From Candidatus Bathyarchaeota archaeon (GTDB lineage Archaea; Thermoproteota; Bathyarchaeia; 40CM-2-53-6), in assembly GCA_963833125.1 (NCBI GenBank), contig CAWHWX010000014.1, positions 32,001 through 96,000 of the forward strand: a stretch of DNA of 64,000 bases, read 5' to 3'. Position 1 is the first letter of the stretch, and each line of letters opens with the position of its first letter. The notes under the pieces are model-generated. The model was not told the DNA's origin. It ran no database searches and saw only the letters and a program-made list of their open reading frames with translations. Position numbers and translations under genes: made by a program. Positions 1 through 37,832 of this stretch are shown here, in pieces.

Positions 1-596
1 ATAGCAGTAACTATCAGGTAGGTTGGAACAGTGATGAGGCAATACAGTTTGTAGGCACGAATTCCAAATATTGCAATTAAGATGAGTACGATTAGTACCA
101 CGAAGGATAGAGGAAATCCCCAGGGTACTGAAGCCAGGTTGATCGCAAGCTGAGTCAGATAACTACTGTGAATCGCGGCTCCAACTCCGAAGAAGGATGG
201 GCCAAGTCCTATCACGAACATGTCCCATAGATTGAACACGTTGAAGTAGATCAGGCCCGCACCTATGAAGATCATCTGGATGGTTGCGTATAGCGGTCCC
301 ACCATTCGAGCGGACCAAACATAATCGCCCCCGCTTCTGGGCATTCCTGCGCTAAGTTTCCCATACACGTATGCCATACAGAGAGGCGGAATGCCCCCAA
401 TCGCAAAGCAGACGTACAGGTTAGCGCCAGGGAAGAAATAGGGCGCGAACAGGACAGTCGTGACAAATCCGTTGATGAGGAGGACCATTCCTTGCGACAT
501 AAGAAAGTGATCCCTAAAACCAAGCGCCCTGACCAGCCCTGTTGCTTCTCGCAGGAACACCGGACGCTTAGCAGACGTACTGTCTGATGCAGTCAA
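1..596 (-). CDS. APC-family amino acid/polyamine permease (runs off window edge)
   Basis: Not in ORF track. Manual translation from TTG at 596: TASDSTSAKRPVFLREATGLVRALG...AGMPRSGGDYVWSAR, many TM segments; same motifs as 24911..26540. Confidence 0.85.
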   Translation of the reverse strand, partial: MTASDSTSAKRPVFLREATGLVRALGFRDHFLMSQGMVLLINGFVTTVLFAPYFFPGANLYVCFAIGGIPPLCMAYVYGKLSAGMPRSGGDYVWSARMVGPLYATIQMIFIGAGLIYFNVFNLWDMFVIGLGPSFFGVGAAIHSSYLTQLAINLASVPWGFPLSFVVLIVLILIAIFGIRAYKLYCLITVPTYLIVTA

Positions 597-707
597 ATAA
601 TTGAGCCTCCGGAGAATAGTTGAGTTTAGTAAATAAGATCTTCGCAAATCTGTCTTAGCGGTCGGCAAAATTCAAGGCTTAAATACATTTCAGAGAATTT
701 CTTTTGC

Positions 708-1013
708 ATGGTCCATATTTTTATGATGTATAATGTGCTGCCGGGAAAAATGGAAGAATATAGAAAGCACTCACGGACAACCGACCAACCAACATTGAAG
801 GGCCAACCTGGGATAAGGAAATTTACAGTTTACGAGATCAAAGGAGCTCAGACCGGTAAGTCACCGTACCAGGTCGTAGAAGACATCGAAGTGGACAGCT
901 GGGACGCTTTCCTGAAAGTTGCCGCCTCTGACGCTGGCAAGAAACTCGGTGAGATGTGGAAAAAGTATTGCGATGAGGCTTCCCAAATTACCGTCTTCGG
1001 AGATCCAATCTGA
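708..1013 (+). CDS. REDY-like/HapK (EthD-like dimeric alpha-beta barrel) protein
   Basis: YNVLPG..EEY...RTTDQP..PYQVVEDIEVDSWDAF pattern; TATA-like CTTAAATA ~28 nt upstream. Confidence 0.6.
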   Translation: MVHIFMMYNVLPGKMEEYRKHSRTTDQPTLKGQPGIRKFTVYEIKGAQTGKSPYQVVEDIEVDSWDAFLKVAASDAGKKLGEMWKKYCDEASQITVFGDPI

Positions 1014-1181
1014 AATCCGCTTTTCTTCGCATTATCTGATAGTTACTGATTTCGTTCTTCCGGGAATCCCACATCTGATTCGTTATCGGAGTGTCGTTTA
1101 CTGTCGGCTCAGGCTAAACCATCCGCCTATAACGGATGGAGCAGCCTGAAACTTTTCAATGATTTAATTGAGGTTCAGATC

Positions 1182-2410
1182 GTGCCGGAGATCGGCGGCA
1201 GGATCATCCAATTGAAGCTAGACGAGTTTGAATATCTCTGGGTGAATGATCATCTGGCAGGTCAACCGGCTACACCGACAGGGCTCGGCGTTGATGGTGG
1301 TTGGCTGAATTATGGAGGGAGCAAGATCTGGCCCGCTCCGCAAGGTTGGGGACGCGATGATCGTTGGCCAGGGCCGCCAGACGCAGTACTCGACGGAAGC
1401 CCTCACGTCGGGTCCATTCTAGTTCCCGAGGGCGAATGTGCCTCAGTGCAAGTAGTTAGCCAGAGGGATGACCGGAGTGGCATTCAGTTCACACGTACCC
1501 TCAAAGTCTGCAATAATGCAGCACGCGTTAGCATCGACTGCAAGATGGAAAATATCGATACTAAACCGAGGCGTTGGGGGATCTGGCAGGTCACACAGCA
1601 CAATGTCGCAAACAGAAATGGGACTGGATTCGACGAAAAAATCCGCGTCTACTGCCCCATCAACCCTCGAAGCATTCACCCCAAGGGCTACAAGGTAATC
1701 TACGGTCCGACGGACAATCCCGAATTCAACTCCAAGAACGGAATGATGTCCACTCGATACCTGCATTTGGTTGGTAAGATAGGGATGGATTGTTCAGCTG
1801 GGTGGTATGCGCTAGTAAACGGCACCCACGGCTATGTGTTTGTCGAGCGGTTCATTTGGGAGAGCGAAAGAGAATATCCTGATGACACGTCGTTCGAACT
1901 CTGGACTCAAGGCTCGGGAACCATTCGAGCCTGGGGAAGGCAGGTCAAGATGTCGGATAAGCTCGCGGAAAACCCTTACGTTCTGGAAACCGAAGCCCTA
2001 AGTCCATTTGCTCAACTAGTACCCGGACAGAGTAGTTCCTACCACAGCGACTGGTATGTCGCAAAAATCGGCGGAAACTTGCCGATTGTGGATTGTACTG
2101 ACGTGGGCATAACCTGCGTTCCGTTACTGGCGAGTCTTTCCGCAGGAAATCTCACCATACCGCCGGGCATTTTGGCGTATTTGAAAACGGTCAAGCGGCA
2201 TTAGCGTTTATGGACGCGGATGGAAATGAAACTGGTCGCGGGTTTGCGAGGATATCCGTCTCACCGAAGGAGCCGCTTATGCTTGAAGAATTGGGCAAGC
2301 TTGCCGAGGGGGTTGAGGTCCCTTCAGGGACCGTTCAATTGTCGCTAATCGTGATCGACGGTTCAGGAGAAACAGTTGGGAGCTTAGCTCTTTCAAGAAT
2401 TTCGAATTGA
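1182..2410 (+). CDS. DUF4380-like / galactose-mutarotase-fold protein (frameshift ~2160; true start probably upstream)
   Basis: VPEIGGRII, WLNYGGSKIWPAPQ motifs; frame open upstream of 1182 (GWSSLKLFNDLIEV); continues GHFGVFENGQAALAFMDADG into the 2210..2410 frame. Confidence 0.6.
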
Positions 2411-2439
2411 TGTAGAGCGCAGTACGATTTTTCCCCAGC

Positions 2440-3614
2440 TCACCAGTCCGCTATAGAACCGTCGTCGTAGTAGACATTGGGTATGTCCTTGGCGGTGTAG
2501 GGTATGCGTCGCAGAAGGTCTTCATTTAGTTCGAACCCCAAGCCGGGTCCGCGGGTAGCTGTAAGTAACCATCTTCGAATTTCAAAGGCGGTTTTAGCAG
2601 ACCTTTCCTTGGGTTCGTATCAGCCGGAATCATTTCTTGAATCAAAAAGTTCGGGATGCTTGCGTCCAGATGGATTGAGGCGGCTGTGGCTACTGGACTG
2701 TTTGGGTTGTGAGGAGCGACTGTGGCATAGTAACATTCGGCTAGGGCGGCAATTTTCTTACACTCGAGGATTCCGCCTGCGTGACAAACGTCGGGTTGTA
2801 TGATTTGTGCTCCATGCTTTTCCAGAAGTGAACTGAAACCGAACTTGGTGTAGATTCTTTCGCCTGTGGCGATAGGAACATTCGACTTTGCGCATACTTG
2901 AGCCATCATTTCAACGTTTTCGGGTGGGACTGGTTCTTCGAAGAAGAGGAGGTTGTATGGTTCGAGTTCTTTAGCTAGAATTGTGGCTGTGCTCGGGTCT
3001 AAGCGTCCATGAGCATCCAACATTAGGTCGATTTTTTCTCCAACGGCGTTTCGGACTGCTGCAACTCGCGCTACGGTTTCCTTTATTGGGCTTCTTTTCA
3101 TTACGTCGTGTCGAGACGGAATTCCGGAGACCGTGTAAGCGTTCGCGCCTTCCGTCAGGAATTTCAGTGCCTTGAATCCCTTTGCTACAATTTGTTTAGA
3201 GTTCTTAGCTAGGTCTTCTGGTGTAAGGCCGGAGACATGTGTGTACGCTTTTACTTTGTCTCGCGAAGGTCCGCCTAGCAATTTGTAGACGGGGCAGCCT
3301 AAGCTCTTGCCTAGAATGTCCCAGAGCGCCTGTTCCACACCAGAGATTGCGCTGCATAGTACGGGGCCTCCCTTCCAGAAAGTTCCTCGATACATTGCCT
3401 GCCAGTGGCGTTCGATTTCTGTTGGGTCTTTTCCTACCAAGTAGCGTTTGAGTTCTAATACTGCGGTCTCAACTGTCTTTTCTCTACTCTCAAGCGTCCC
3501 TTCTCCATATCCAACTAAACCGTTACTTGTTTCGACTTTCACGAACAGCCAATTGCGCCATTTGTCTGCCTTTCTTTCGCCTGCGAGGAATGTCTTCACA
3601 TCAGTTATCTTCAA
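2440..3614 (-). CDS. dgoD: Galactonate dehydratase-like enolase-superfamily enzyme (frameshift ~2550)
   Basis: WLFVKVET..GYGEGTLE, SAISGVEQALWDI, DAHGR, FFEEP, ATGER, QPDVCHAGG, APHNP; alternative frame gives C-terminus GLGFELNE...DGSIADW*. Confidence 0.85.
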
Positions 3615-3638
3615 GGTAAGAGAACTCCAATCTCAGCA

Positions 3639-4727
3639 TCAGTAATCGGCATCAAGTTTAGTTGTTTCTTTTAGATACTGAGCTAGGTTCTCTTCCGTGT
3701 AGGTGCCCTTGTATGGAGTTGGTTTTGAATTTGCGTCGCCATAGGTTTGTTGTATGTATGGCGATACTTCCTGACCGAGCAGTTGCAGATATCCTTCCAC
3801 ATCACCGCTAACCGACGCCGCGATGTGCGTGAAGCCAAGTTTAATGTAAGTCTCGTAGAATTTGATAATGTCCTCACGGGTGGAAGCAACGAGGAAGTTC
3901 TTCTCGACAGTCTCCCAAGAAACCCTGTTGCCGTGTTCTTCCATATAGCGAGGGTCTGAAACAGCCAAATCAAAGAAGACGGGAAGAAGGGTTGACTTCC
4001 ACAGCTTCAGCGAGTTCAATGCCTTCTCCTGGTCGTTTTTCGAGTATCCAACGTGAACGAGGAGTGATTTCTCAATCTGATCCGATCTTCGTCCCACGAG
4101 CCTCGCACCCTTCTCCAAGGCGGGAAATAGTTTCTGGGTAAAGAGGGAAGTGTCTTCCAGCGGAAGGGACATGAAGCTATCGCCAAGCATCCCAGCGACT
4201 TCCGCTCCTCGGGGTCCCGTTGAGGCTATGTGGATTGGAATGGGCAGGTTGGGTTTGTCGTAGAGGTTTGCCTTGGAAACCCTGTAGAATTTTCCCGAAT
4301 GAGTTACGAATTTTCGATTCCAGAGCTTCCTGATTATTACGACGGCTTCCTTCAAACGTTCAAGATTCTCTGCGTGAGTTGGCCATTCGAAACCGCAAGG
4401 AACCTCGTTTAGGGCTTCACCTGTACCGACTCCGAGAAACACTCGGCCTGGGTAGAGGAGTGCCAGTGTCGCAAAGGCCTGGGCGACGATTGGGGGTTGG
4501 TAGCGAAAGAGTGGGGCGGTTATGCTTGTGCCGAGAATTGCATTTTTCGTTAGTGCGCCGATAGCAGAGAGTATTTCCCAAGAGAAACCTCCGTGGCCAT
4601 TAGTGTGATACCAAGGATGGAAGTGGTCCGAAGCCCACACTGCATCTAACCCGTTTCTTTCTGCGCTTACCCCGTACCTCACCAGGTCCGGGGGGGCGTA
4701 TTCTTCGGATGCGGCTACGAATCCCAA
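3639..4727 (-). CDS. LLM-class F420-dependent oxidoreductase, G6PDH (Fgd)-like
   Basis: EEYAP..LV, SDHFHPW, VAQAFATL, GVGTGEALNE motifs. Confidence 0.85.
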   Translation of the reverse strand: MGFVAASEEYAPPDLVRYGVSAERNGLDAVWASDHFHPWYHTNGHGGFSWEILSAIGALTKNAILGTSITAPLFRYQPPIVAQAFATLALLYPGRVFLGVGTGEALNEVPCGFEWPTHAENLERLKEAVVIIRKLWNRKFVTHSGKFYRVSKANLYDKPNLPIPIHIASTGPRGAEVAGMLGDSFMSLPLEDTSLFTQKLFPALEKGARLVGRRSDQIEKSLLVHVGYSKNDQEKALNSLKLWKSTLLPVFFDLAVSDPRYMEEHGNRVSWETVEKNFLVASTREDIIKFYETYIKLGFTHIAASVSGDVEGYLQLLGQEVSPYIQQTYGDANSKPTPYKGTYTEENLAQYLKETTKLDADY

Positions 4728-8815: not shown

Positions 8816-8843
8816 CCTGGTTCTAATCCCGGCGGGCGCGGCA
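8816..8843 (+). repeat. Degenerate tRNA 3'-end fragment (T-arm plus acceptor 3' strand)
   Basis: cctgg-TTCTAAT-cccgg-cgggcgc-g-gca; canonical 5/7/5/7/1/3 spacing. Confidence 0.4.
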
Positions 8844-9020
8844 ACCCGTAGCTGGGATGGGGGGGGTGGTGTAATTTGTGGGGAGAACACGTTACTCATC
8901 CCTAACGGCGGTGGAGAAAAGAAAACCATCATTCGAAGTAGCTGTGCCTCTTTTTCGGTTCAAACCATTCCCCACTCGGACCCTATTGAGTTCAAACCCG
9001 GATTTTGCAAGACTCAGATT

Positions 9021-9045
9021 CTGTAAATTGGAGTCAGAATCCCCT
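9021..9045 (+). repeat. Short third copy of the GTAAATTGGGGTCAGAATCCCCT repeat
   Basis: ctgtaaattggagtcagaatcccct; 22/25 identical to 18290..18314. Confidence 0.6.
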
Positions 9046-9124
9046 ACCCCATCTCTGCTTTAGTTGGCTCGGTACGAGGCTCTCCCCAAGAAACGAAGAC
9101 GGCGGGAAAATGCGATTAATTCGT

Positions 9125-9274
9125 TCAGAGTTTGTGTTCTAGTGCTTTGATTCGGCGTTCGAGTTCTTCGACCCGTCTCGTGAGACCGTGGATAGCTTTG
9201 TGATGACCGTAACTGTGATCCACAAGATCGTCGAACAGTTTCTTCAATTCCCGAGCGGTCTTCTCTTCCACCAA
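9125..9274 (-). CDS. 49-aa coiled-coil microprotein, hypothetical
   Basis: Manual translation MVEEKTARELKKLFDDLVDHSYGHHKAIHGLTRRVEELERRIKALEHKL*; heptad pattern. Confidence 0.5.
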   Translation of the reverse strand: MVEEKTARELKKLFDDLVDHSYGHHKAIHGLTRRVEELERRIKALEHKL

Positions 9275-9445
9275 ACCCAATCGACCAACAATTGATCCCC
9301 CCGTTATTTATTCATGATTTTAACAGGTAGTTTTGTGTCGGTCTCGTACTGCACACATAAGTAATCTTCCTGAGATTCATCTATAGTCCTCCAAGCGTCA
9401 AGTCAAAAGTTTTTCACCAGCATTCGACTGCGCAGCTGCGGGCGT

Positions 9446-11235
9446 ATGACTACGGCAGCAGCGAAGAAGACCTCGGAGGAACGGGAAGAGGCAAGAATCG
9501 GTATGCTCACCATAATCTCCGGAATCATCGGTCTTAGCCGCAGGATTTCTCGCTTATCATTCTTTACCATCTGATAGGCTTGTTGACAAACCTATTTTTC
9601 TATCAGAAATTCAATTTTTCGTTCGCGTCGCCGCAATACAATACACTTGGATTACTGGTCATACTGGTCCCAGCTTTCGGTGGATTGATTGCCGGCTTAA
9701 TGATCAAGTACGGATCAGCGAAAATTATAGGTCACGGGATACCTGAAACGATCGAGTCCGTTCTCCTATCGAAAAGCAAAATCGAACCAAAAGTCGGACT
9801 TCTGAAAGCTCTTTCCGCTGCCTTCACGATCGGATCCGGTCAACCCTTCGGGGCGGAGGGGCCGATAATTCAGACCGGTGGCGCCTTTGGTTCGTTTATC
9901 GGGCAACTGATCAGCGTTACTGGTTCTGAAAGAAGGATTCTGTTAGCCTGTGGCGCTGCCGCGGGGATGGCCGCGACATTCGGCACACCGATATCGGCAG
10001 TCTTTCTGGTGATAGAACTTCTTCTGTTCGAGTTTCGCGTCAAGTCATTGATCCCAGTGGCAGTAGCCTCGGCGATAGGTGCGTGGATGCATATCTACTT
10101 GATATCTCCTCAACCCCTGTTCTCGACATCTGTGCACAGTTTCGGAGGGCTCGACTCACTCCCATTCTACGTCCTGCTGGGGATATTATCGGGGTTGCTT
10201 GGAACGGGCCTTTCCCGTGGTCTTTACAAAACAGAAGACGCGTTTCGTAAACTTCCTCTCGGTCAGCCGTGGTTGCCGATTCTTGGCGGCCTCGCCGTCG
10301 GCGTGATCGGCTTTGTGGTACCCAAGATACTCGGCGTGGGATACGATGTGATAAACGCGATTATCAATTCCAAAGTGACGTTAGAACTGGCAACTCTGAT
10401 CTTGATTACGAAGGCAGTGGCTTGGCTGCTTGCGATGGGGTCTCAAACTTCGGGTGGTACACTCGCGCCCCTCTTCATGGTTGGTAGCGCACTTGGCCTC
10501 ATCTTTGGAACCATTGTAGTTGCGTTCTTTCCAGGACTCGGTATAGTTCCTACAGTGTTTGCGATTGCAGCCATGGCCGCTGTATTTGGAACCGCGTTGC
10601 GGGCTCCTTTCACATCAATCGTGTTCGCCCTGGAAGTCACGCAGGCCTACCAGGGAGTTCTCCCAGTAATCATAACGGTAGTGATAGCAGAATTGGTAGG
10701 TGAGTATCTCATGGCAGATTCTATTATGACCGAAAAGTTGGCTCGAAGGGGAATGAGAGTCCGTCACATATACGAATTCAATCCATTGCGGCAGGTCAGA
10801 GTTTCTTCGCTAATGTCCCCGCTCCAAGCAATTGACGCAAGAGAGAAGGTCGTCGATTTGTTCAAGAAGATTAACAGTCCTGGTAATGAGCTCGGTAAGA
10901 GGAAACACATTGTTGTTCTCAAAGACGGGAAAGCCGTAGGTGTTGTCGACAGACCTCAATTGTTTGAGGGAGCCTCGAAGGCTGATCCGGATATGATGGT
11001 AGAAGTGATTTCCTCCAAGTCCTTCCTAACTGTTCCTGAGGATGAATTTGGCTTCGAGGCGATGAGGTTAATGACACTGAATAATGCTCCATTCCTTGTG
11101 GTCGAGAACAAGGAGCATAATCCAGTAGGATATCTTTCGAGAGGAGACCTAATCCGGGCTCAGAAAGACAAGATCTCGGACGATACAATCGTTGAGAAAG
11201 GCCTCTTGGCTCGATTTATGCAAAAACGACCATAG
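9446..11235 (+). CDS. ClC-family chloride channel/antiporter with CBS domains (frameshift ~9537)
   Basis: GHGIPE, GAEGPIIQ, GGTLAPLF signature motifs; C-terminal CBS pair; N-terminus from ATG 9446 in another frame. Confidence 0.9.
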
Positions 11236-11346
11236 AACATAGAACAATCTAACAACTCTTCAAATCGCTATACTCCACCCTGTTTTCATGTATGTGATAT
11301 CCATGGTGTGAGACTTAGAAGGTAAATCGCCGTCGTTCGCGTTTTC

Positions 11347-11376
11347 GTGTGTGTGGCCGGTGAAATTTGAATCGTC
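11347..11376 (-). repeat. Degenerate tRNA 3'-end/CACAC site
   Basis: rc: gacga-TTCAAAT-ttcac-cggccac-a-cacac. Confidence 0.4.
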
Positions 11377-11462
11377 GGAGATGTGATTCAGATCGGCCCA
11401 ACGCAATACTTGGTTCTTCTTATTTCGAGTAAATTCGTTACCAATGAAGTGACTGCTCGCAG

Positions 11463-11942
11463 CTAGTGAGTTTGAGTTCTTGATGCTATTGCGGCGTGTG
11501 CAAGTTTTTCCCCGGGTGAGCCTCTCCAGCCACGTATTGTCCTCCAGAGATTGTAGAAATGCAGGTACAAAGCGATAACCAGTAAGGAGAGTGAGCCGAG
11601 CACAAGAAACTTCGAATCGAAACTGTAAGGGAGCATTCCGGAAAAACCTACGCTCATTCCGATAACTCCGATATTCATCAACCAAAATTGGATCTTCGCA
11701 AGTCTTAGGCTATGAAGGAAAGCATGAGCGAATGATGGAACAAACAGGTAGGACAAACCGAATATCATCATTGCCACGAAACCATAAAGCTGCATGAAGT
11801 AGAATGCTGTCATCTCAAAAGAAAGCACGTGACCGAAAGTCAGCAGAAGCAACGTCCCTCCTGCAACAAGGTAAATGAGACTTGCCTTCACATACCTTAA
11901 ACTCAGCTGCATAACGACAGCCGCAATCGGCCCCTGAGCCAA
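11463..11942 (-). CDS. 4-TM membrane protein, heme-copper oxidase subunit I-like fragment family
   Basis: YVKASLIYLVAG, LYGFVAMMIFGLSY..P.F, LAKIQFWLMNIG pattern; the His usual before LYGF is absent. Confidence 0.5.
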   Translation of the reverse strand: MAQGPIAAVVMQLSLRYVKASLIYLVAGGTLLLLTFGHVLSFEMTAFYFMQLYGFVAMMIFGLSYLFVPSFAHAFLHSLRLAKIQFWLMNIGVIGMSVGFSGMLPYSFDSKFLVLGSLSLLVIALYLHFYNLWRTIRGWRGSPGEKLAHAAIASRTQTH

Positions 11943-12210
11943 AATCGTAATACCAGCATCTCAGCGTCCAGGTTCTATCAATATTAGTGTAACTGAAAAT
12001 AAGGCGAAGTTTTCTCTGTCAACTCACCAACGATTGAGCGCCGATGGTATCCTCTGCTGTGAACCCACAATCCATCGGTATAAGTAGCGTCTCGATCCGG
12101 CAACGGTTGGGTTGAAGCGTTAGACCGTAAGCTTTTGTTGCACCAACTACTGTCCGCTCGAATGAATCATAGGAACAATCAGGGAAGAGTCAGCGGGGTG
12201 CAAGTACGTT

Positions 12211-12492
12211 ATGGTGAAGAAGACTAAAGTGAAGTGTGTTGCATGTGGGACCGTTGTGCGCGGCCGTCCCGCTTACTTGAGATTGAAGATTACTCATAGT
12301 CAACCAAGTTTGATTGAGTCATCGAAAGCGTTGGGCTTCACCTCGCCAAGTTGGGGAATTGGAGATGTTATGGATGCTCCGATGCATCGTAAGTGCTTCA
12401 GCTTTGCTACACGGGTGTGGAAGCTTGCCTTCGTCACGCGGGCTCTCAGTCCGCGCCGTCACGCCGGCGAACTGCCCCATCCATCCGTTTAG
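12211..12492 (+). CDS. Small hypothetical Zn-finger-like protein
   Basis: CVAC and HRKC pairs; ATG start after a purine-rich tract. Confidence 0.45.
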   Translation: MVKKTKVKCVACGTVVRGRPAYLRLKITHSQPSLIESSKALGFTSPSWGIGDVMDAPMHRKCFSFATRVWKLAFVTRALSPRRHAGELPHPSV

Positions 12493-12507
12493 GCTGCCAA
12501 TGTTTCC

Positions 12508-12708
12508 ATGCTGGTAAGAACCTTGAAATGTCCAACTTGTCCGCATTCCTTGAGCAACCATTGCTGTAGGTGTGACCGTATCATCCCACCCGAGAATCAG
12601 CAGCTCAGAATCCGTCCACTGAGGAACAAAATCAGCAGCGATCTCAGCCTGCATCTGCTATGCGAACAATGCTACGAAGATAGAGCGAGAGCAGCTCAAC
12701 AGGTCTAA
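12508..12708 (+). CDS. Cys-rich Zn-binding microprotein
   Basis: CPTC, CCRC, CEQC in 66 aa. Confidence 0.4.
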   Translation: MLVRTLKCPTCPHSLSNHCCRCDRIIPPENQQLRIRPLRNKISSDLSLHLLCEQCYEDRARAAQQV

Positions 12709-12751
12709 TGAACTACGTTGGAGTTCCCCATGGAGGGCATCTAGTCTGTGG

Positions 12752-12791
12752 GTGTGGGTCTAGTGGCGCGGGCAAGCAAATTTGAAACGGG
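12752..12791 (-). repeat. tRNA 3'-end/CACAC hybrid site
   Basis: rc: cccgt-TTCAAAT-ttgct-tgcccgc-g-CCA-ctagacc-cacac; same tail as the 33547 site. Confidence 0.65.
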
Positions 12792-12826
12792 TTATATATA
12801 CCGGTAAATTGGGGACAGGATTCCCT
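12782..12826 (+). repeat. Left copy of 45-bp direct repeat flanking the riboflavin operon
   Basis: 36/45 ungapped identity to 18270..18314 (counted by hand). Confidence 0.75.
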
Positions 12827-12865
12827 TAGCGACCTCTAAGTCTTACTCGGGACAAATTGTGGGAT

Positions 12866-12958
12866 AACTTATTTTTTAGTTCCTACGATCGTAGTAGTAA
12901 CGCTTATTAGATGTTGCACGGATCTACTCGTAATTTAGTTAATACTCATTTACTAGTA
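12866..12958. promoter_or_regulatory. Tandem WACT-N8-AGTW palindromes upstream of ribB (candidate RbkR operators)
   Basis: Sites at 12866 AACT-N8-AGTT, 12884 TACG-N8-AGTA, 12925 TACT-N8-AGTT, 12943 TACT-N8-AGTA; two pairs with 18-bp period. Confidence 0.55.
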
Positions 12959-12981
12959 ATCGATAAATACCGTTTTTCGCT

Positions 12982-13704
12982 GTGTTCGGTGATATGATGA
13001 CCTCTGAGTATCTAACGAACAATCTCGATGCTGCGATTAGCGGATTGAGAGAGGGGAGATTCCTCCTGCTTCATGACTCGGACTCTCGGGAAGATGAAGT
13101 GGATATGGTCGTCGCAGCTGAGCGAGTTACTCCAGAACACATTAGAGCGATGAGAACCGACGCGGGCGGTCTAGTGTGCGTTGCTCTCGATAATGAAATT
13201 GGACGAGCTTTAGGGATCCCGTATCTGCAGGACGTTCTTTTGTCAGCCTCGGAGAAATACCCTCTCCTTCGGTCACTTCATGAAGAAATCGCACCCTACG
13301 GGGGGAAGTCAGCGTTTTCAATAACTGTAAACCACCGACGAACCTTCACAGGCATAACTGATCGAGACAGAGCGCTAACAATCAGAGAATTGGCAAAGCA
13401 AACCAAAGCCGCTGTTAACAGAGAAGCAGATTGTCAGAAAACATTTGCTTCGGAATTCAAAGCTCCGGGACACGTACACCTCCTCTTGGAGGCTCAAGGT
13501 TCACTGAGAGAAAGGCGTGGGCACACGGAGTTATCGGTGTACTTGACTAAGCTCGCAGGCCTGACCCCAGCCGCCGTAATCTGCGAGATGCTTGATGGGA
13601 AGACTCACGACGCGCTCACCGTTGAAAACGCAACAAATTACGGTCAAATGCATTCGATCCCGCTCCTGGATGGGCAGCAATTGGTAACCCGTTTTCTGGG
13701 ATAG
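12982..13704 (+). CDS. ribB: 3,4-dihydroxy-2-butanone 4-phosphate synthase (archaeal type)
   Basis: DSDSREDEVDM, FSITVNH..TFTGITDRDRA, PGHV, RRGHTE, CEM. Confidence 0.95.
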   Translation: MFGDMMTSEYLTNNLDAAISGLREGRFLLLHDSDSREDEVDMVVAAERVTPEHIRAMRTDAGGLVCVALDNEIGRALGIPYLQDVLLSASEKYPLLRSLHEEIAPYGGKSAFSITVNHRRTFTGITDRDRALTIRELAKQTKAAVNREADCQKTFASEFKAPGHVHLLLEAQGSLRERRGHTELSVYLTKLAGLTPAAVICEMLDGKTHDALTVENATNYGQMHSIPLLDGQQLVTRFLG

Positions 13705-33447: not shown

Positions 33448-33546
33448 TCCTTTCGCCGCAGGTCAGAACGTAGCCTGACCCAAATAGCTTGTTCGTGGAA
33501 CTATCAGAACGGGTATGAATCCCAGCCCAGAAGTCAGGGTCATTCT

Positions 33547-33572
33547 GTGTGTGCGCACTATTAGACCCACAC
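33547..33572 (+). repeat. GTGTGTG..CACAC site
   Basis: GTGTGTG-CGCACTA-TTAGACC-CACAC. Confidence 0.7.
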
Positions 33573-33619
33573 TAACTTCGGAAGGCAGATATCAGAGATA
33601 GTTCGATTGCGAGCTCAGG

Positions 33620-34204
33620 ATGCACTCCTTGCCCCGTGTTGTGTCCTTGCCCGTCCTCAGGCACTCTATTCCAGTAGGAATCGAATATGGATCGAATTTG
33701 CTGGTGGAATTTACGCCGGATTCTATTTGGTATGAAACGTCGTTTACAATCGCAGCCGGCGCCTTGAAGGATGGCTTGAAAACTCAGTATCATACATTCC
33801 AACGTAGTCCTGACGAGGTTAGAGAAAACCCCACGAAGCTCGATTTGAATGTTAAGAAACTTGAAGAAGGCGGTGTTCTGAGAATCCTCGATAGTTATAC
33901 TACTCAACTGGGGTTGCGTGGAACCGAGGAGACTGGGAGACTCAAACTTTCCGACATCAGCATTGTACAGTCTCAGAGGTTGAAGGCGGGTTACCCTGAG
34001 GAACAAAAGGGCTGGTTGCACATAGACGATAACCTTACAGTTTTCAACAGATACAACTCAGAAAACACGATTGTGGACTGGATTAGGACCCGGTCTATAC
34101 CCGACACGAAATTGAACGAAGACCGTCGTTGTCGGTACCCATGGTGCTCGTCGTCGGGTCTACTGGTGCGAGCATCGGAATTTGAACCGTCATTGTGTGT
34201 GTAG
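33620..34204 (+). pseudogene. KaiC/RAD55-like RecA-fold protein, degenerate Walker A, truncated near 34120
   Basis: GIEYGSNLLVEFTPDS, SPDEVRE, LEEGGVLRILDSY, IDDN; the tail reads through the repeat at 34151. Confidence 0.6.
34151..34191 (-). repeat. tRNA 3'-end hybrid site
   Basis: rc: gacgg-TTCAAAT-tccga-tgctcgc-a-CCA-gtagacc-cgac. Confidence 0.75.
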
Positions 34205-34222
34205 TACTAATGATGCACACAC
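34195..34222 (-). repeat. 28-bp GTGTGTG..CACACAC site
   Basis: rc: GTGTGTGCATCA-TTAGTAC-TACACACAC. Confidence 0.75.
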
Positions 34223-34272
34223 CACCGGACTATGTGACTGATAGGAGCAGATTGAATGCGATCCTTCACTAT

Positions 34273-34698
34273 TCACTTTTTTTCCAATCTGTATAGCGCA
34301 TAAACAGCTGCAGTCATTCCTAAGAAAAAGTATAGCACTGCTATTTCTATTGGCAAAGTTCCACCTATCATGTAAAACGGCGAATGATAATAACTCCACA
34401 ATCGATTTCTAGTTCCATAAAGCTCCCACACTATATCCGCCACAAAACCAATAGCCCCAAGTTCTAAGATTACAGGATTTCTAAGCTTAACAAGTCCAGC
34501 TATTCCGATGACACCAAACAGAACCATTAGAAGTGTACTCGTCCAGACATTTCTGCCTAATTGACTTGCTAGAAAAGTGGAAAAGATAATGGTCAAGATC
34601 ATAATTGAAACTATTGTGACACTATTTTTGAAGGCATCGGCTTTTCCGGCAGAGATAGTCCACTCGATAACATGCTGAACTTGATTTCGTTTTCCCAT
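34273..34698 (-). CDS. Small 4-TM membrane protein, possibly chimeric N-terminus
   Basis: WELYG....WSY, LPIEI pattern; visibly AT-rich; bracketed by repeat sites. Confidence 0.55.
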   Translation of the reverse strand: MGKRNQVQHVIEWTISAGKADAFKNSVTIVSIMILTIIFSTFLASQLGRNVWTSTLLMVLFGVIGIAGLVKLRNPVILELGAIGFVADIVWELYGTRNRLWSYYHSPFYMIGGTLPIEIAVLYFFLGMTAAVYALYRLEKK

Positions 34699-34821
34699 TA
34701 TTCATTTCTCCTCAGTTGGTGGCATAGTAATTTCCTGCACCACATTCATGTCATATAAGAATTCCATCAATCACTATTATGAACTAATGGCGTCTTATCG
34801 TCGCTTGATCGGGACTTATTC

Positions 34822-34855
34822 GTGTGTGTGGTACTAATGGTGTGCGCACACACAC
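34822..34855 (-). repeat. GTGTGTG..CACACAC site
   Basis: rc: GTGTGTGTGCGCACACCA-TTAGTAC-CACACACAC. Confidence 0.75.
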
Positions 34856-34916
34856 TTTCCAACGACGAGACGACCGGTTCAAATTCAGGTGCTCGCACCA
34901 TTGATACCACACACAC
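34856..34916 (+). repeat. Degenerate 3' half of tRNA-Gly(TCC) plus CACAC tail (att-like)
   Basis: TT-TCC-AA / cgacg / agacg / accgg-TTCAAAT-tcagg / tgctcgc-a-CCA / ttgatac-cacacacac; exact tRNA spacing from anticodon loop to CCA. Confidence 0.75.
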
Positions 34917-35242
34917 ATTACGGCAGTTCCTGATTTCAGTATTCCATAACATCAGGCCGGGTTGCATATATCCGAAAACAAAAAAACTTCGCATCATAGA
35001 GAATCGTTAAACATACGTCTACGTAATACAATTTGAAGGACTTGAGTTTGAGATCGAGAAATTGGAAGATTCTCGGATGTCTACTCCTAATTGTCTCGGT
35101 TTTGAGGAGTATTGAGTCCTATTCAATATGGCATGAAGCGACCGGTAGTCCTTCCAACAATCCTTCCACCACCAACACAATGCAACCAGAACTATGCAAT
35201 TGAGGCAATGAGAAGGCCAGCCTAGTTGTACCACCGTTCTTA

Positions 35243-35270
35243 GTGTGTGTTATTACTGGTGCGCACACAC
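35243..35270 (-). repeat. 28-bp GTGTGTG..CACACAC site
   Basis: rc: GTGTGTG-CGCACCA-GTAATAA-CACACAC. Confidence 0.75.
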
Positions 35271-37223: not shown

Positions 37224-37832
37224 CACCGCCCACAAACGTAACCTAGCAAAGCAACCGCCACGATTACAGTGACCTCACCAGCCGACGAAATGTAGACAGT
37301 CCACACGGACCAACAAGAACGTACCGTTACCTCAAATGAATTGCCTTAAAGTTGGCGATGTCCAATTTTCTAGGCTTGAAGAAGGCTGCCTGAAGTTCAG
37401 AGTCCGCTGTGACCGCCAGGAAGCGCCAAACGTACTACTGGGTGGAAATGAAGTATAATTACCCTTTACGACTTCCTCTCCAACCCACGTTAAATACCTA
37501 GTCGGCATGTACACCGACTCAGTTGTTTGATGGAGGTGTTTGAGGTTTGGCTAAGAAACGAAAAGTTAAGATGAAGCTAGGTACTGAGCACGACAAGAAC
37601 GTTAGGCAAGAGGAAATGGTAGCTTAAGGCTACCGACCGAGGGCGGTAATCGCTCTAATCTTCTTTCTTTGTTAATCGAAACTTGCTGTTCCTAGTCTTA
37701 ATCCACCCCGCACTAACCCAAAACCACATTCACCAATGTGGGTTTCGTTCCACTCTAATTGTAAGACTCCACTCCGACGGTGTGATTAATTGAAGCATTC
37801 TCTTTATTGGACCCGCGATTACTTCCCAGTTA

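Follow-up and report, generated by a model that had tools for sequence, protein, structure and literature searches.

We analysed a stretch of 64,000 nucleotides from a Candidatus Bathyarchaeota archaeon (contig CAWHWX010000014.1, positions 32,001 to 96,000; hereafter the window), in which a preliminary description had pointed to six related sites of about 28 bp at positions 33547-35270 and had proposed that they belong to a cassette-recombination system. The contig that carries the window, C14, is part of a metagenome-assembled genome (MAG; G000, here the source MAG) of 3.07 Mb in 39 contigs, which is 87.8% complete with 7% contamination. Sites are oriented throughout so that they read CGCACCA-N7-CACACAC, where N7 is a 7-nt insert; those with GTGTGTG or another GT run as the left arm are called S-type and those with a tRNA-like left arm T-type. 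All six sites were found in the window sequence, after four small corrections, and a further degenerate site lies beyond the flagged range:

33545..33574, plus strand: site 1, a degenerate S-type site, TGTGTGTG-CGCACTA-TTAGACC-CACAC, with CTA for CCA and a short right arm
34151..34189, minus strand: site 2, T-type; the T-loop and acceptor arm of a pseudo-tRNA (34164-34189) end in CGCACCA and are followed by GTAGACC
34195..34222, minus strand: site 3, S-type, with a degenerate TGCATCA at the place of CGCACCA and the insert TTAGTAC; downstream border of a membrane-gene module
34822..34853, minus strand: site 4, S-type, CGCACACCA-TTAGTAC-CACACAC, with two extra bases; upstream border of the membrane-gene module
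34846..34916, plus strand: site 5, a T-type unit made up of a CA run, a GACGA-rich flank (34855-34874), a pseudo-tRNA arm (34875-34900) and the core
34894-34916, plus strand: core of site 5, CGCACCA-TTGATAC-CACACACAC
35243..35270, minus strand: site 6, canonical S-type, GTGTGTG-CGCACCA-GTAATAA-CACACAC
12752..12800, minus strand: additional degenerate T-type site, tttcaaatttgcttgcc-CGCGCCA-CTAGACC-CACAC

The inserts are those listed in the preliminary description, and the left arm is tRNA-like in two copies, sites 2 and 5, as it had stated; the start that it gave for site 5, 34856, is that of the flank, the core lying at 34894-34916. Its core consensus holds for site 6, whereas sites 1-4 deviate from it by CTA, by an absent CA arm (site 2 continues into C-GACGACGAG), by TGCATCA and by the two extra bases, respectively. 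Sites 3 and 4, on the same strand with the membrane gene between them, have the insert TTAGTAC in common. Over 26 nt the tRNA-like arms of sites 2 and 5 (34164-34189 and 34875-34900) show 92% complementarity, and sites 4 and 5 together form a 95-bp unit (34822-34916) with inverted 28-nt arms that are 86% complementary and with a DNA fold of -22.9 kcal/mol (z -3.7). The arrangement is well above that expected from shuffled sequence: GTGTGTG-N14-CACACAC with up to two mismatches gave 7 overlapping matches, representing 4 distinct sites, in the window, compared with a mean of 0.15 matches in dinucleotide shuffles of the window (n=100), none of which reached 7.

The preliminary description had suggested a scan of the genome and its relatives, and it can be seen from such a scan that the core is present both genome-wide and throughout the lineage. 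The source MAG holds 32 copies of the exact core CGCACCA-N7-CACACAC, compared with 0 for a reversed-pattern control, and the spacing is sharply 7, with counts at 9 and 11 stemming from longer CA runs. When one mismatch was allowed, 62 sites were found, which form accessory islands on contigs C1, C9, C11, C14, C16, C18, C27, C28, C29, C32 and C39. All 18 other genomes of the genus also have the exact core, with 1-45 copies per genome (reversed control 0-1 per genome), as do 4 of 12 genomes that represent other genera of the order (G028 with 17 copies, G030 with 10, G026 with 2 and G019 with 1), the remaining 8 having none. The S-type pattern, which specifies 21 bases, occurs in at least 120 metagenome contigs. 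Altogether the 14 fixed positions of the core are kept exactly in hundreds of copies, in at least three genera of differing base composition and between unrelated flanks. On this sequence evidence we take it as excluded that the TG/CA tracts are an assembly artefact, because 18/18 further assemblies of the genus have the exact core and so do at least 120 independent metagenome contigs. In G028, which belongs to another genus, a single insert, AGGTACC, is found in 17 of the 18 sites, including a site behind a real tRNA gene. In this genome (loci L049-L057) a conserved AT-rich stretch (ATCGCTTTAA..AATTACC), which resembles an archaeal TATA region, stands before several S-type sites.

The left arm takes three forms: T-type, derived from a tRNA T-loop and acceptor arm (GGTTCAAAT...GCyCGCACCA), S-type, with its GT run, and a third type with a G run. 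Among the 62 sites of the source MAG there are 22 S-type, 14 T-type and 7 G-run sites, with 19 others. The GTGTGTG arm is present in only about half of the sites, and the conserved part is an asymmetric 21-bp sequence, CGCACCA-N7-CACACAC; the earlier suggestion of a functional 28-bp dyad is not supported. Often a GACGA-rich stretch comes after the CA run, with the next pseudo-tRNA arm behind it; the resulting units of about 65 nt can be tandem, and runs of such units directly follow real tRNA genes.

The tRNA derivation proposed in the preliminary description is confirmed by real tRNA genes that carry the core. Two such genes of the source MAG end in ...CGGCCGCACCA, followed by N7 and CACACAC: an intron-bearing tRNA at C18:125837-125993 (Rfam 34.4 bits, cut-off 29; aligned anticodon loop CUGCCAC), where ARAGORN either disagrees with Rfam or finds nothing, and a tRNA at C16:463652-463744 (Rfam 48.2 bits). 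A real tRNA followed by the core was also found in G011 and, in another genus, in G028. The core derives from the last 7 bases encoded by a tRNA gene, that is the acceptor end with CCA, together with 14 bases downstream. CCA is gene-encoded in 17 of the 18 real tRNA genes of the source MAG and is therefore uninformative as to an RNA intermediate. As parts of a tRNA or split tRNA the pseudo-tRNA arms are not functional: over 125 distinct arms the T-stem pairing averages 2.51 of 5 positions, identical to the 2.51 of a shuffled control, and is full in only 12, whereas the loop TTCAAAT is retained in 89. We conclude that the sites are copies of a short signal, derived from a tRNA end, that occurs throughout a group of soil and peat Bathyarchaeia.

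Some further observations concern these tRNA genes. The core-bearing tRNA at C18:125837-125993 (L007:2838-2994) carries two insertions, one of 58 nt in the D region and one of 31 nt ahead of the T arm. The whole MAG gave only 22 tRNA matches, and many of its tRNA genes are probably intron-rich and undetected. An origin of the GACGA-rich flank as a remnant of an Arg(UCU) anticodon loop was not borne out, as the Rfam alignment gives CUGCCAC for the anticodon loop of the real tRNA.

We found that the sites mark the borders of small modules, in agreement with the preliminary description, which had read them as junctions where a recombinase inserts or shuffles small gene modules. In the source MAG, 46 of 51 sites lie outside open reading frames (ORFs) of at least 80 aa, and their orientation is unbiased with respect to the neighbouring genes (downstream 24 same and 21 opposite; upstream 26 vs 18). 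The pieces between the sites of the window include the following:

34216..34847, minus strand: membrane-gene module bounded by CA and GT runs, which recurs at other loci and in other genomes
34273-34698, minus strand: gene for a 141-aa membrane protein, inside this module
33620..34204, plus strand: truncated KaiC-like ORF of 194 aa (full members of the family have about 235-245 aa), the 3' end of which reads through into site 2

The membrane-gene module recurs in full at five other places in four genomes (G000:C16 at 96.7% identity over 630 nt, G013:C8 at 94.5%, G011:C6 at 93.5%, G011:C5 at 92.2% and G033:C38 at 85.8%), with partial copies in G014:C2 and G004:C18. In every full copy the homology starts at the CA run (CACACAC) and stops at the GT run, and the insert and the outer arm vary between the copies. 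A larger block, 34164-34917, is conserved in G013 and ends exactly at the CCA edge. Homology therefore breaks at both edges of N7, between CCA and N7 in the G013 copy and between N7 and the CA run in the other copies; such breaks would suit a 7-bp overlap region, although the arms on either side are not inverted repeats.

Synteny was also found to break at or beside sites, as the preliminary description had anticipated. Similarity to the relative G016 (86% over the genes for CDC48 and LarA) ends close to 33500, about 45 bp ahead of site 1, and G016 is siteless there. Contigs C18/C6 and C29 of the source MAG, which represent haplotypes, have a tRNA gene in common and diverge directly after the core, and between C32 and C39 there is an indel of about 630 bp adjoining a site. 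In the metagenome loci 59 of 287 sites, among the matches listed, are less than 200 bp away from a contig end. Contigs from four environmental sequencing runs mainly cover 34164-34917 and come from relatives rather than from one population; their loose ends lie at module borders (34156-34166, 34189-34191, 34842-34843, 34875-34877 and 34917), and these contigs of relatives gave no excision or inversion within one population. No RNA run was among those listed, and each of the 24 sequencing runs considered holds less than one tenth of the sampled words. With respect to the haplotypes, C29:4620-6329 carries about 1.7 kb of extra DNA before the same tRNA when compared with C18:125833-125857, and about 22 bases of the tRNA 5' start stand on both sides of it, which suggests that this tRNA gene has a second point of insertion, at its 5' end.

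The arrays show a preferred order of sites. Direct repeats of 21-23 bp that start at CGCACCA flank modules of 0.6-3.5 kb, the upstream partner being T-type and the downstream partner S-type or of the G-run type. Four such pairs from the source MAG are:

C1, 100498 / 97040: insert GCCGACC, spacing 3.5 kb
C1, 349732 / 352831: insert CTAGACC, spacing 3.1 kb
C1, 335052 / 333954: insert TTAGACC, spacing 1.1 kb
C28, 159414 / 157836: insert ATAGACC, spacing 1.6 kb

Comparable direct pairs were found in G011, G014, G018 and G013. In the source MAG (with C6 dropped, as it is a 96% duplicate of C18) N7 is common to 8 of 81 pairs of sites up to 10 kb apart, compared with 2.26 expected, and 19 of 5000 shuffles reach 8. 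Among 110 same-strand neighbour pairs, T is followed by S in 26, S by S in 23, T by T in 9 and S by T in 6; these counts pool loci L033-L061, some of which were picked after the pairs had been seen. Inverted arrangements are also common, with 39 convergent and 21 divergent opposite-strand neighbours among the matches listed for the metagenome loci, and in G028 inward-facing sites bracket cargo in all three close pairs examined.

The cargo consists of small accessory genes, many of them truncated. In the island on C1, sites separate one- and two-gene units that encode a glyoxalase, two family-2 glycosyltransferases, two KaiC-like proteins and unknowns. KaiC-like proteins of about 235 aa (Pfam PF06745, E 2e-10 and 5e-9) are the commonest cargo in the source MAG, and the 194-aa ORF of the window, which the preliminary description had recognised as a truncated KaiC-like gene, is a member of this family. 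By eye the Walker A motif is missing, and LVEFDPxSxW stands in its place. The family gave 25 protein-search matches in the source MAG and up to 28 in relatives, many of them truncated and most beside sites (for example window 33620-34204, C1:96218-104158 and C18:126209-130060); in the source MAG 13 of its 22 ORFs have a site within 700 bp, compared with 87 of 3459 ORFs overall within 600 bp. We considered whether the KaiC-like family drives the spread of the sites and rejected this, because G002, G013, G017 and G028 are rich in sites without an expansion of the family; it is treated here as cargo.

A potential explanation for these findings is that the sites are att-like cassette junctions served by a recombinase acting in trans, a reading to which we give an even chance of being correct. 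A small circular module would carry one S-type site, and a site-specific recombinase would join this site with a T-type site, giving the product T-core, cargo, S-core. Repeated rounds would build arrays headed by a tRNA or pseudo-tRNA, and recombination between opposed sites would flip or exchange modules. The enzyme would most likely be a tyrosine integrase supplied by integrating viruses or plasmids; the circular intermediate and the point of strand exchange are likewise presumed. There is precedent for a very short core at a tRNA 3' end, as SNJ2 uses one of 14 bp according to the available excerpt of the paper that describes it (PMC5861418), and archaeal integrases prefer tRNA 3' ends according to a second source available in part (PMC8371274).

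Several results weigh against trans-acting recombination at these sites. CGCACCA and CACACAC, which stand on either side of N7, are not inverted repeats, unlike the cores of classical tyrosine recombinases, and no circle, excision or inversion was observed in the data examined. The same cargo occurs with an inverted downstream site and with different inserts, which simple integration does not predict. The excess of shared inserts is not significant in the metagenome loci, where N7 is common to 11 of 353 pairs among the matches listed, compared with 6.6 expected, and 418 of 5000 shuffles reach 11; the choice of some loci after their pairs had been seen likewise tells against the T-then-S count. 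Among the recombinase families searched for, no known one tracks the sites. With PF00589 at E ≤0.001 there were 0 matches in G018 (98% complete, 31 sites) and in G028 (96% complete, 18 sites). Three integrase proteins were searched across 31 genomes, and within the genus a small integrase type similar to that on C22 was found in 11 of 18 genomes, the C28-type integrase in 9 of 18 and relatives of a virus integrase (see below) in 7 of 18; SSV-type integrases (PF16795) were found in 4 of 31. In 570,682 bases around 287 metagenome sites, among the matches listed, none of four integrase queries gave a hit. The co-occurrence with a XerA or other tyrosine recombinase that the preliminary description had envisaged is therefore not borne out. 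Its statement that the window contains no recombinase gene stands for tyrosine recombinases, as none of the 12 PF00589 matches of the source MAG is on C14, no search of the window for other families having been made; none of these matches is in the large islands of C1 either.

One association between an integrase and a site was found in a virus collection, where the S-type pattern gave 0 matches and the bare core 121, of which 119 were in chance contexts and two in T-type context. A virus contig of 51.7 kb encodes a tyrosine integrase of 363 aa that has a zinc ribbon (PF00589, E 3.5e-9; L154:12390-13481). The integrase starts at a distance of 270 bp from one such T-type site, on the far side of which there is a KaiC-like ORF. 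From its ORF layout the contig looks like that of a head-tailed virus, two large ORFs having been scanned without a Pfam match. Relatives of the integrase were found at only 2 loci in the virus collection. The second virus contig with a related integrase has no site in the 180 bp available upstream, a further point against the proposed link between sites and enzyme, and 6 of 9 fetched genomic copies of the relatives sit beside other tRNA 3' ends. In the source MAG a 333-aa integrase gene (C28:133207-134400) directly adjoins the 3' end (...CCCCGGCTCCA) of a tRNA gene that has an intron but no core; the integrase gene may be frameshifted, with the zinc-ribbon part in another frame. The start of contig C16 holds two runs of three adjacent tyrosine-recombinase genes (556-3808 and 8839-13451), which we take to resemble 'recombinase in trio' elements and which may be foreign or contaminating DNA.

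The preliminary description had compared the sites with dif modules and integron cassettes. In Acinetobacter, as described in the excerpts available of two papers, plasmid dif (pdif) modules are bounded by 28-bp sites in both orientations, move between replicons by shuffling and have no recombinase of their own, the host XerC/XerD acting in trans (PMC6449649, PMC13141974). The present sites are similar in that they are short, lie in both orientations and bound small accessory modules without their own recombinase. They differ in being tRNA-derived, chromosomal and archaeal, and in the finding that the site-rich genomes G018 and G028 have no Xer-type enzyme matching PF00589. A dif site is composed of two 11-bp inverted arms and a 6-bp spacer; here there is no such 11-6-11 dyad, only the 7-bp GT/CA arms being inverted, with 14 asymmetric bases between them. 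With integrons the sites share modules of one to a few genes in arrays, short sites between these and a distinct head site, which here is tRNA-like. However, no IntI-type integrase was found on the window contig, in the large islands, in G018 or G028, or, among the matches listed, around the 287 metagenome sites, and the cassettes lie in both orientations without bias to the direction of genes, whereas those of integrons are promoterless and point one way. The attC sites of integrons have cores of RYYYAAC and GTTRRRY (R''/R'); the sites described here have CGCACCA and CACACAC instead, without either of these cores, and are far shorter. Membership in the dif modules or in the integrons thus fails on the defining features tested. 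Casposons also differ, as Cas1 (PF01867) was found in only one of five site-rich genomes.

A further comparison is with archaeal elements that target tRNA genes, for example SNJ2 (tRNA-Met), in which, according to the accessible parts of two papers, the direct repeats begin in a tRNA 3' end and the core is of similar size (PMC5861418, PMC8371274). The virus contig with an integrase beside a T-type site fits this comparison. In contrast to such elements, most of the modules are of 0.6-3.5 kb with no integrase inside, and the core is multiplied to tens per genome, in both orientations and with pseudo-tRNA as well as non-tRNA arms. The literature searched, including the available portion of a Bathyarchaeia virus paper, gave no description of such sites; att-site tables in supplements may bear on this.

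A rival explanation is that the sites are terminal inverted repeats of non-autonomous transposons resembling miniature inverted-repeat transposable elements (MITEs), with modules that are composite transposons and a transposase that is rare, unbinned or of unknown family. Like MITEs, the sites are a dispersed, intergenic and abundant repeat, and the 95-bp unit has inverted arms and a stable fold, but no target-site duplication was seen beside this unit or beside the module copies. Inward-facing sites often bracket cargo, as in the membrane-gene module, around KaiC-like genes and in the G028 pairs, and the excess of convergent over divergent neighbours points the same way; against this, the cargo encodes no transposase in the cases read, many sites are single or in direct pairs, and neither the direct repeats nor the T-then-S polarity (26 vs 6) is expected of such elements, any more than an origin from a tRNA end. 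The near-uniform insert of G028 is as expected for a single element family, whereas elsewhere one module can have different inserts at its two ends. The accumulation of sites at contig ends is also compatible with transposons; a cognate enzyme was not found, as of five site-rich genomes one has a resolvase, one has Cas1 and four have the TnpB-type domain PF07282. We consider this explanation rather improbable.

We also regard it as improbable that the sites are passive scars, left where viruses or plasmids integrated at the same tRNA genes and decayed and where homologous or illegitimate recombination then made mosaics, with no cassette system at present. Decay would account for the loss of T-stem pairing in the pseudo-tRNA arms and for the many truncated cargo genes, and repeated integration for the runs of pseudo-tRNA units right after real tRNA genes; a T-type site at a provirus border and the failure of the searches to find a resident recombinase are also in keeping with it. 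It does not readily explain why 14 positions remain exact in hundreds of copies from at least three genera with unrelated flanks, or why a 630-bp module has exact borders in several genomes. Furthermore, the islands contain no integrase remnants, and CA runs of 7-9 bp are too short for homologous recombination. An action at the level of RNA, in which the sites would serve as small RNAs, as transcript punctuation or as processing signals resembling a tRNA, with recombination a secondary effect, is very unlikely. The tRNA-like 3' end with CCA, the hairpin that S-type sites could form and the intergenic position of the sites would each fit it. However, ARAGORN and Rfam at gathering level yielded no tRNA or other RNA family in the window, the T-stem pairing of the 125 distinct arms equals that of the control, and the sites have no orientation bias to neighbouring genes. 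Rfam searches of the window at a loose E-value gave chance hairpin matches only, for example to mir-466.

Cassette junctions served in trans thus remain the reading that we prefer. An extended form of it, which we put forward tentatively and with more doubt than the reading itself, is a chromosomal cassette platform in Bathyarchaeia of this order, with a tRNA or pseudo-tRNA head and cassettes each closed by GTGTGTG-CGCACCA-N7-CACACAC; these would be exchanged among genomes by a recombinase outside the families tested, and N7 might be a code for specificity, diversified in one genus and uniform in another. If a recombinase does act in trans, the archaea would have, in these sites built on a tRNA end, a counterpart of integron cassettes or dif modules. 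Little is known of how the Bathyarchaeia, which are abundant and uncultured, exchange accessory genes. A border signal that is easily scanned for provides a handle on their flexible genome, as it defines cassettes, shows which genes travel, explains assembly breaks and allows a search for the enzyme.

The window also contains a dispersed repeat of about 100-245 bp at 37431-37675, which has 7 other copies in the genome at 78-89% identity and many in relatives. One of these copies, at C12:103446-103685, lies just after a tRNA gene (C12:103243-103347).

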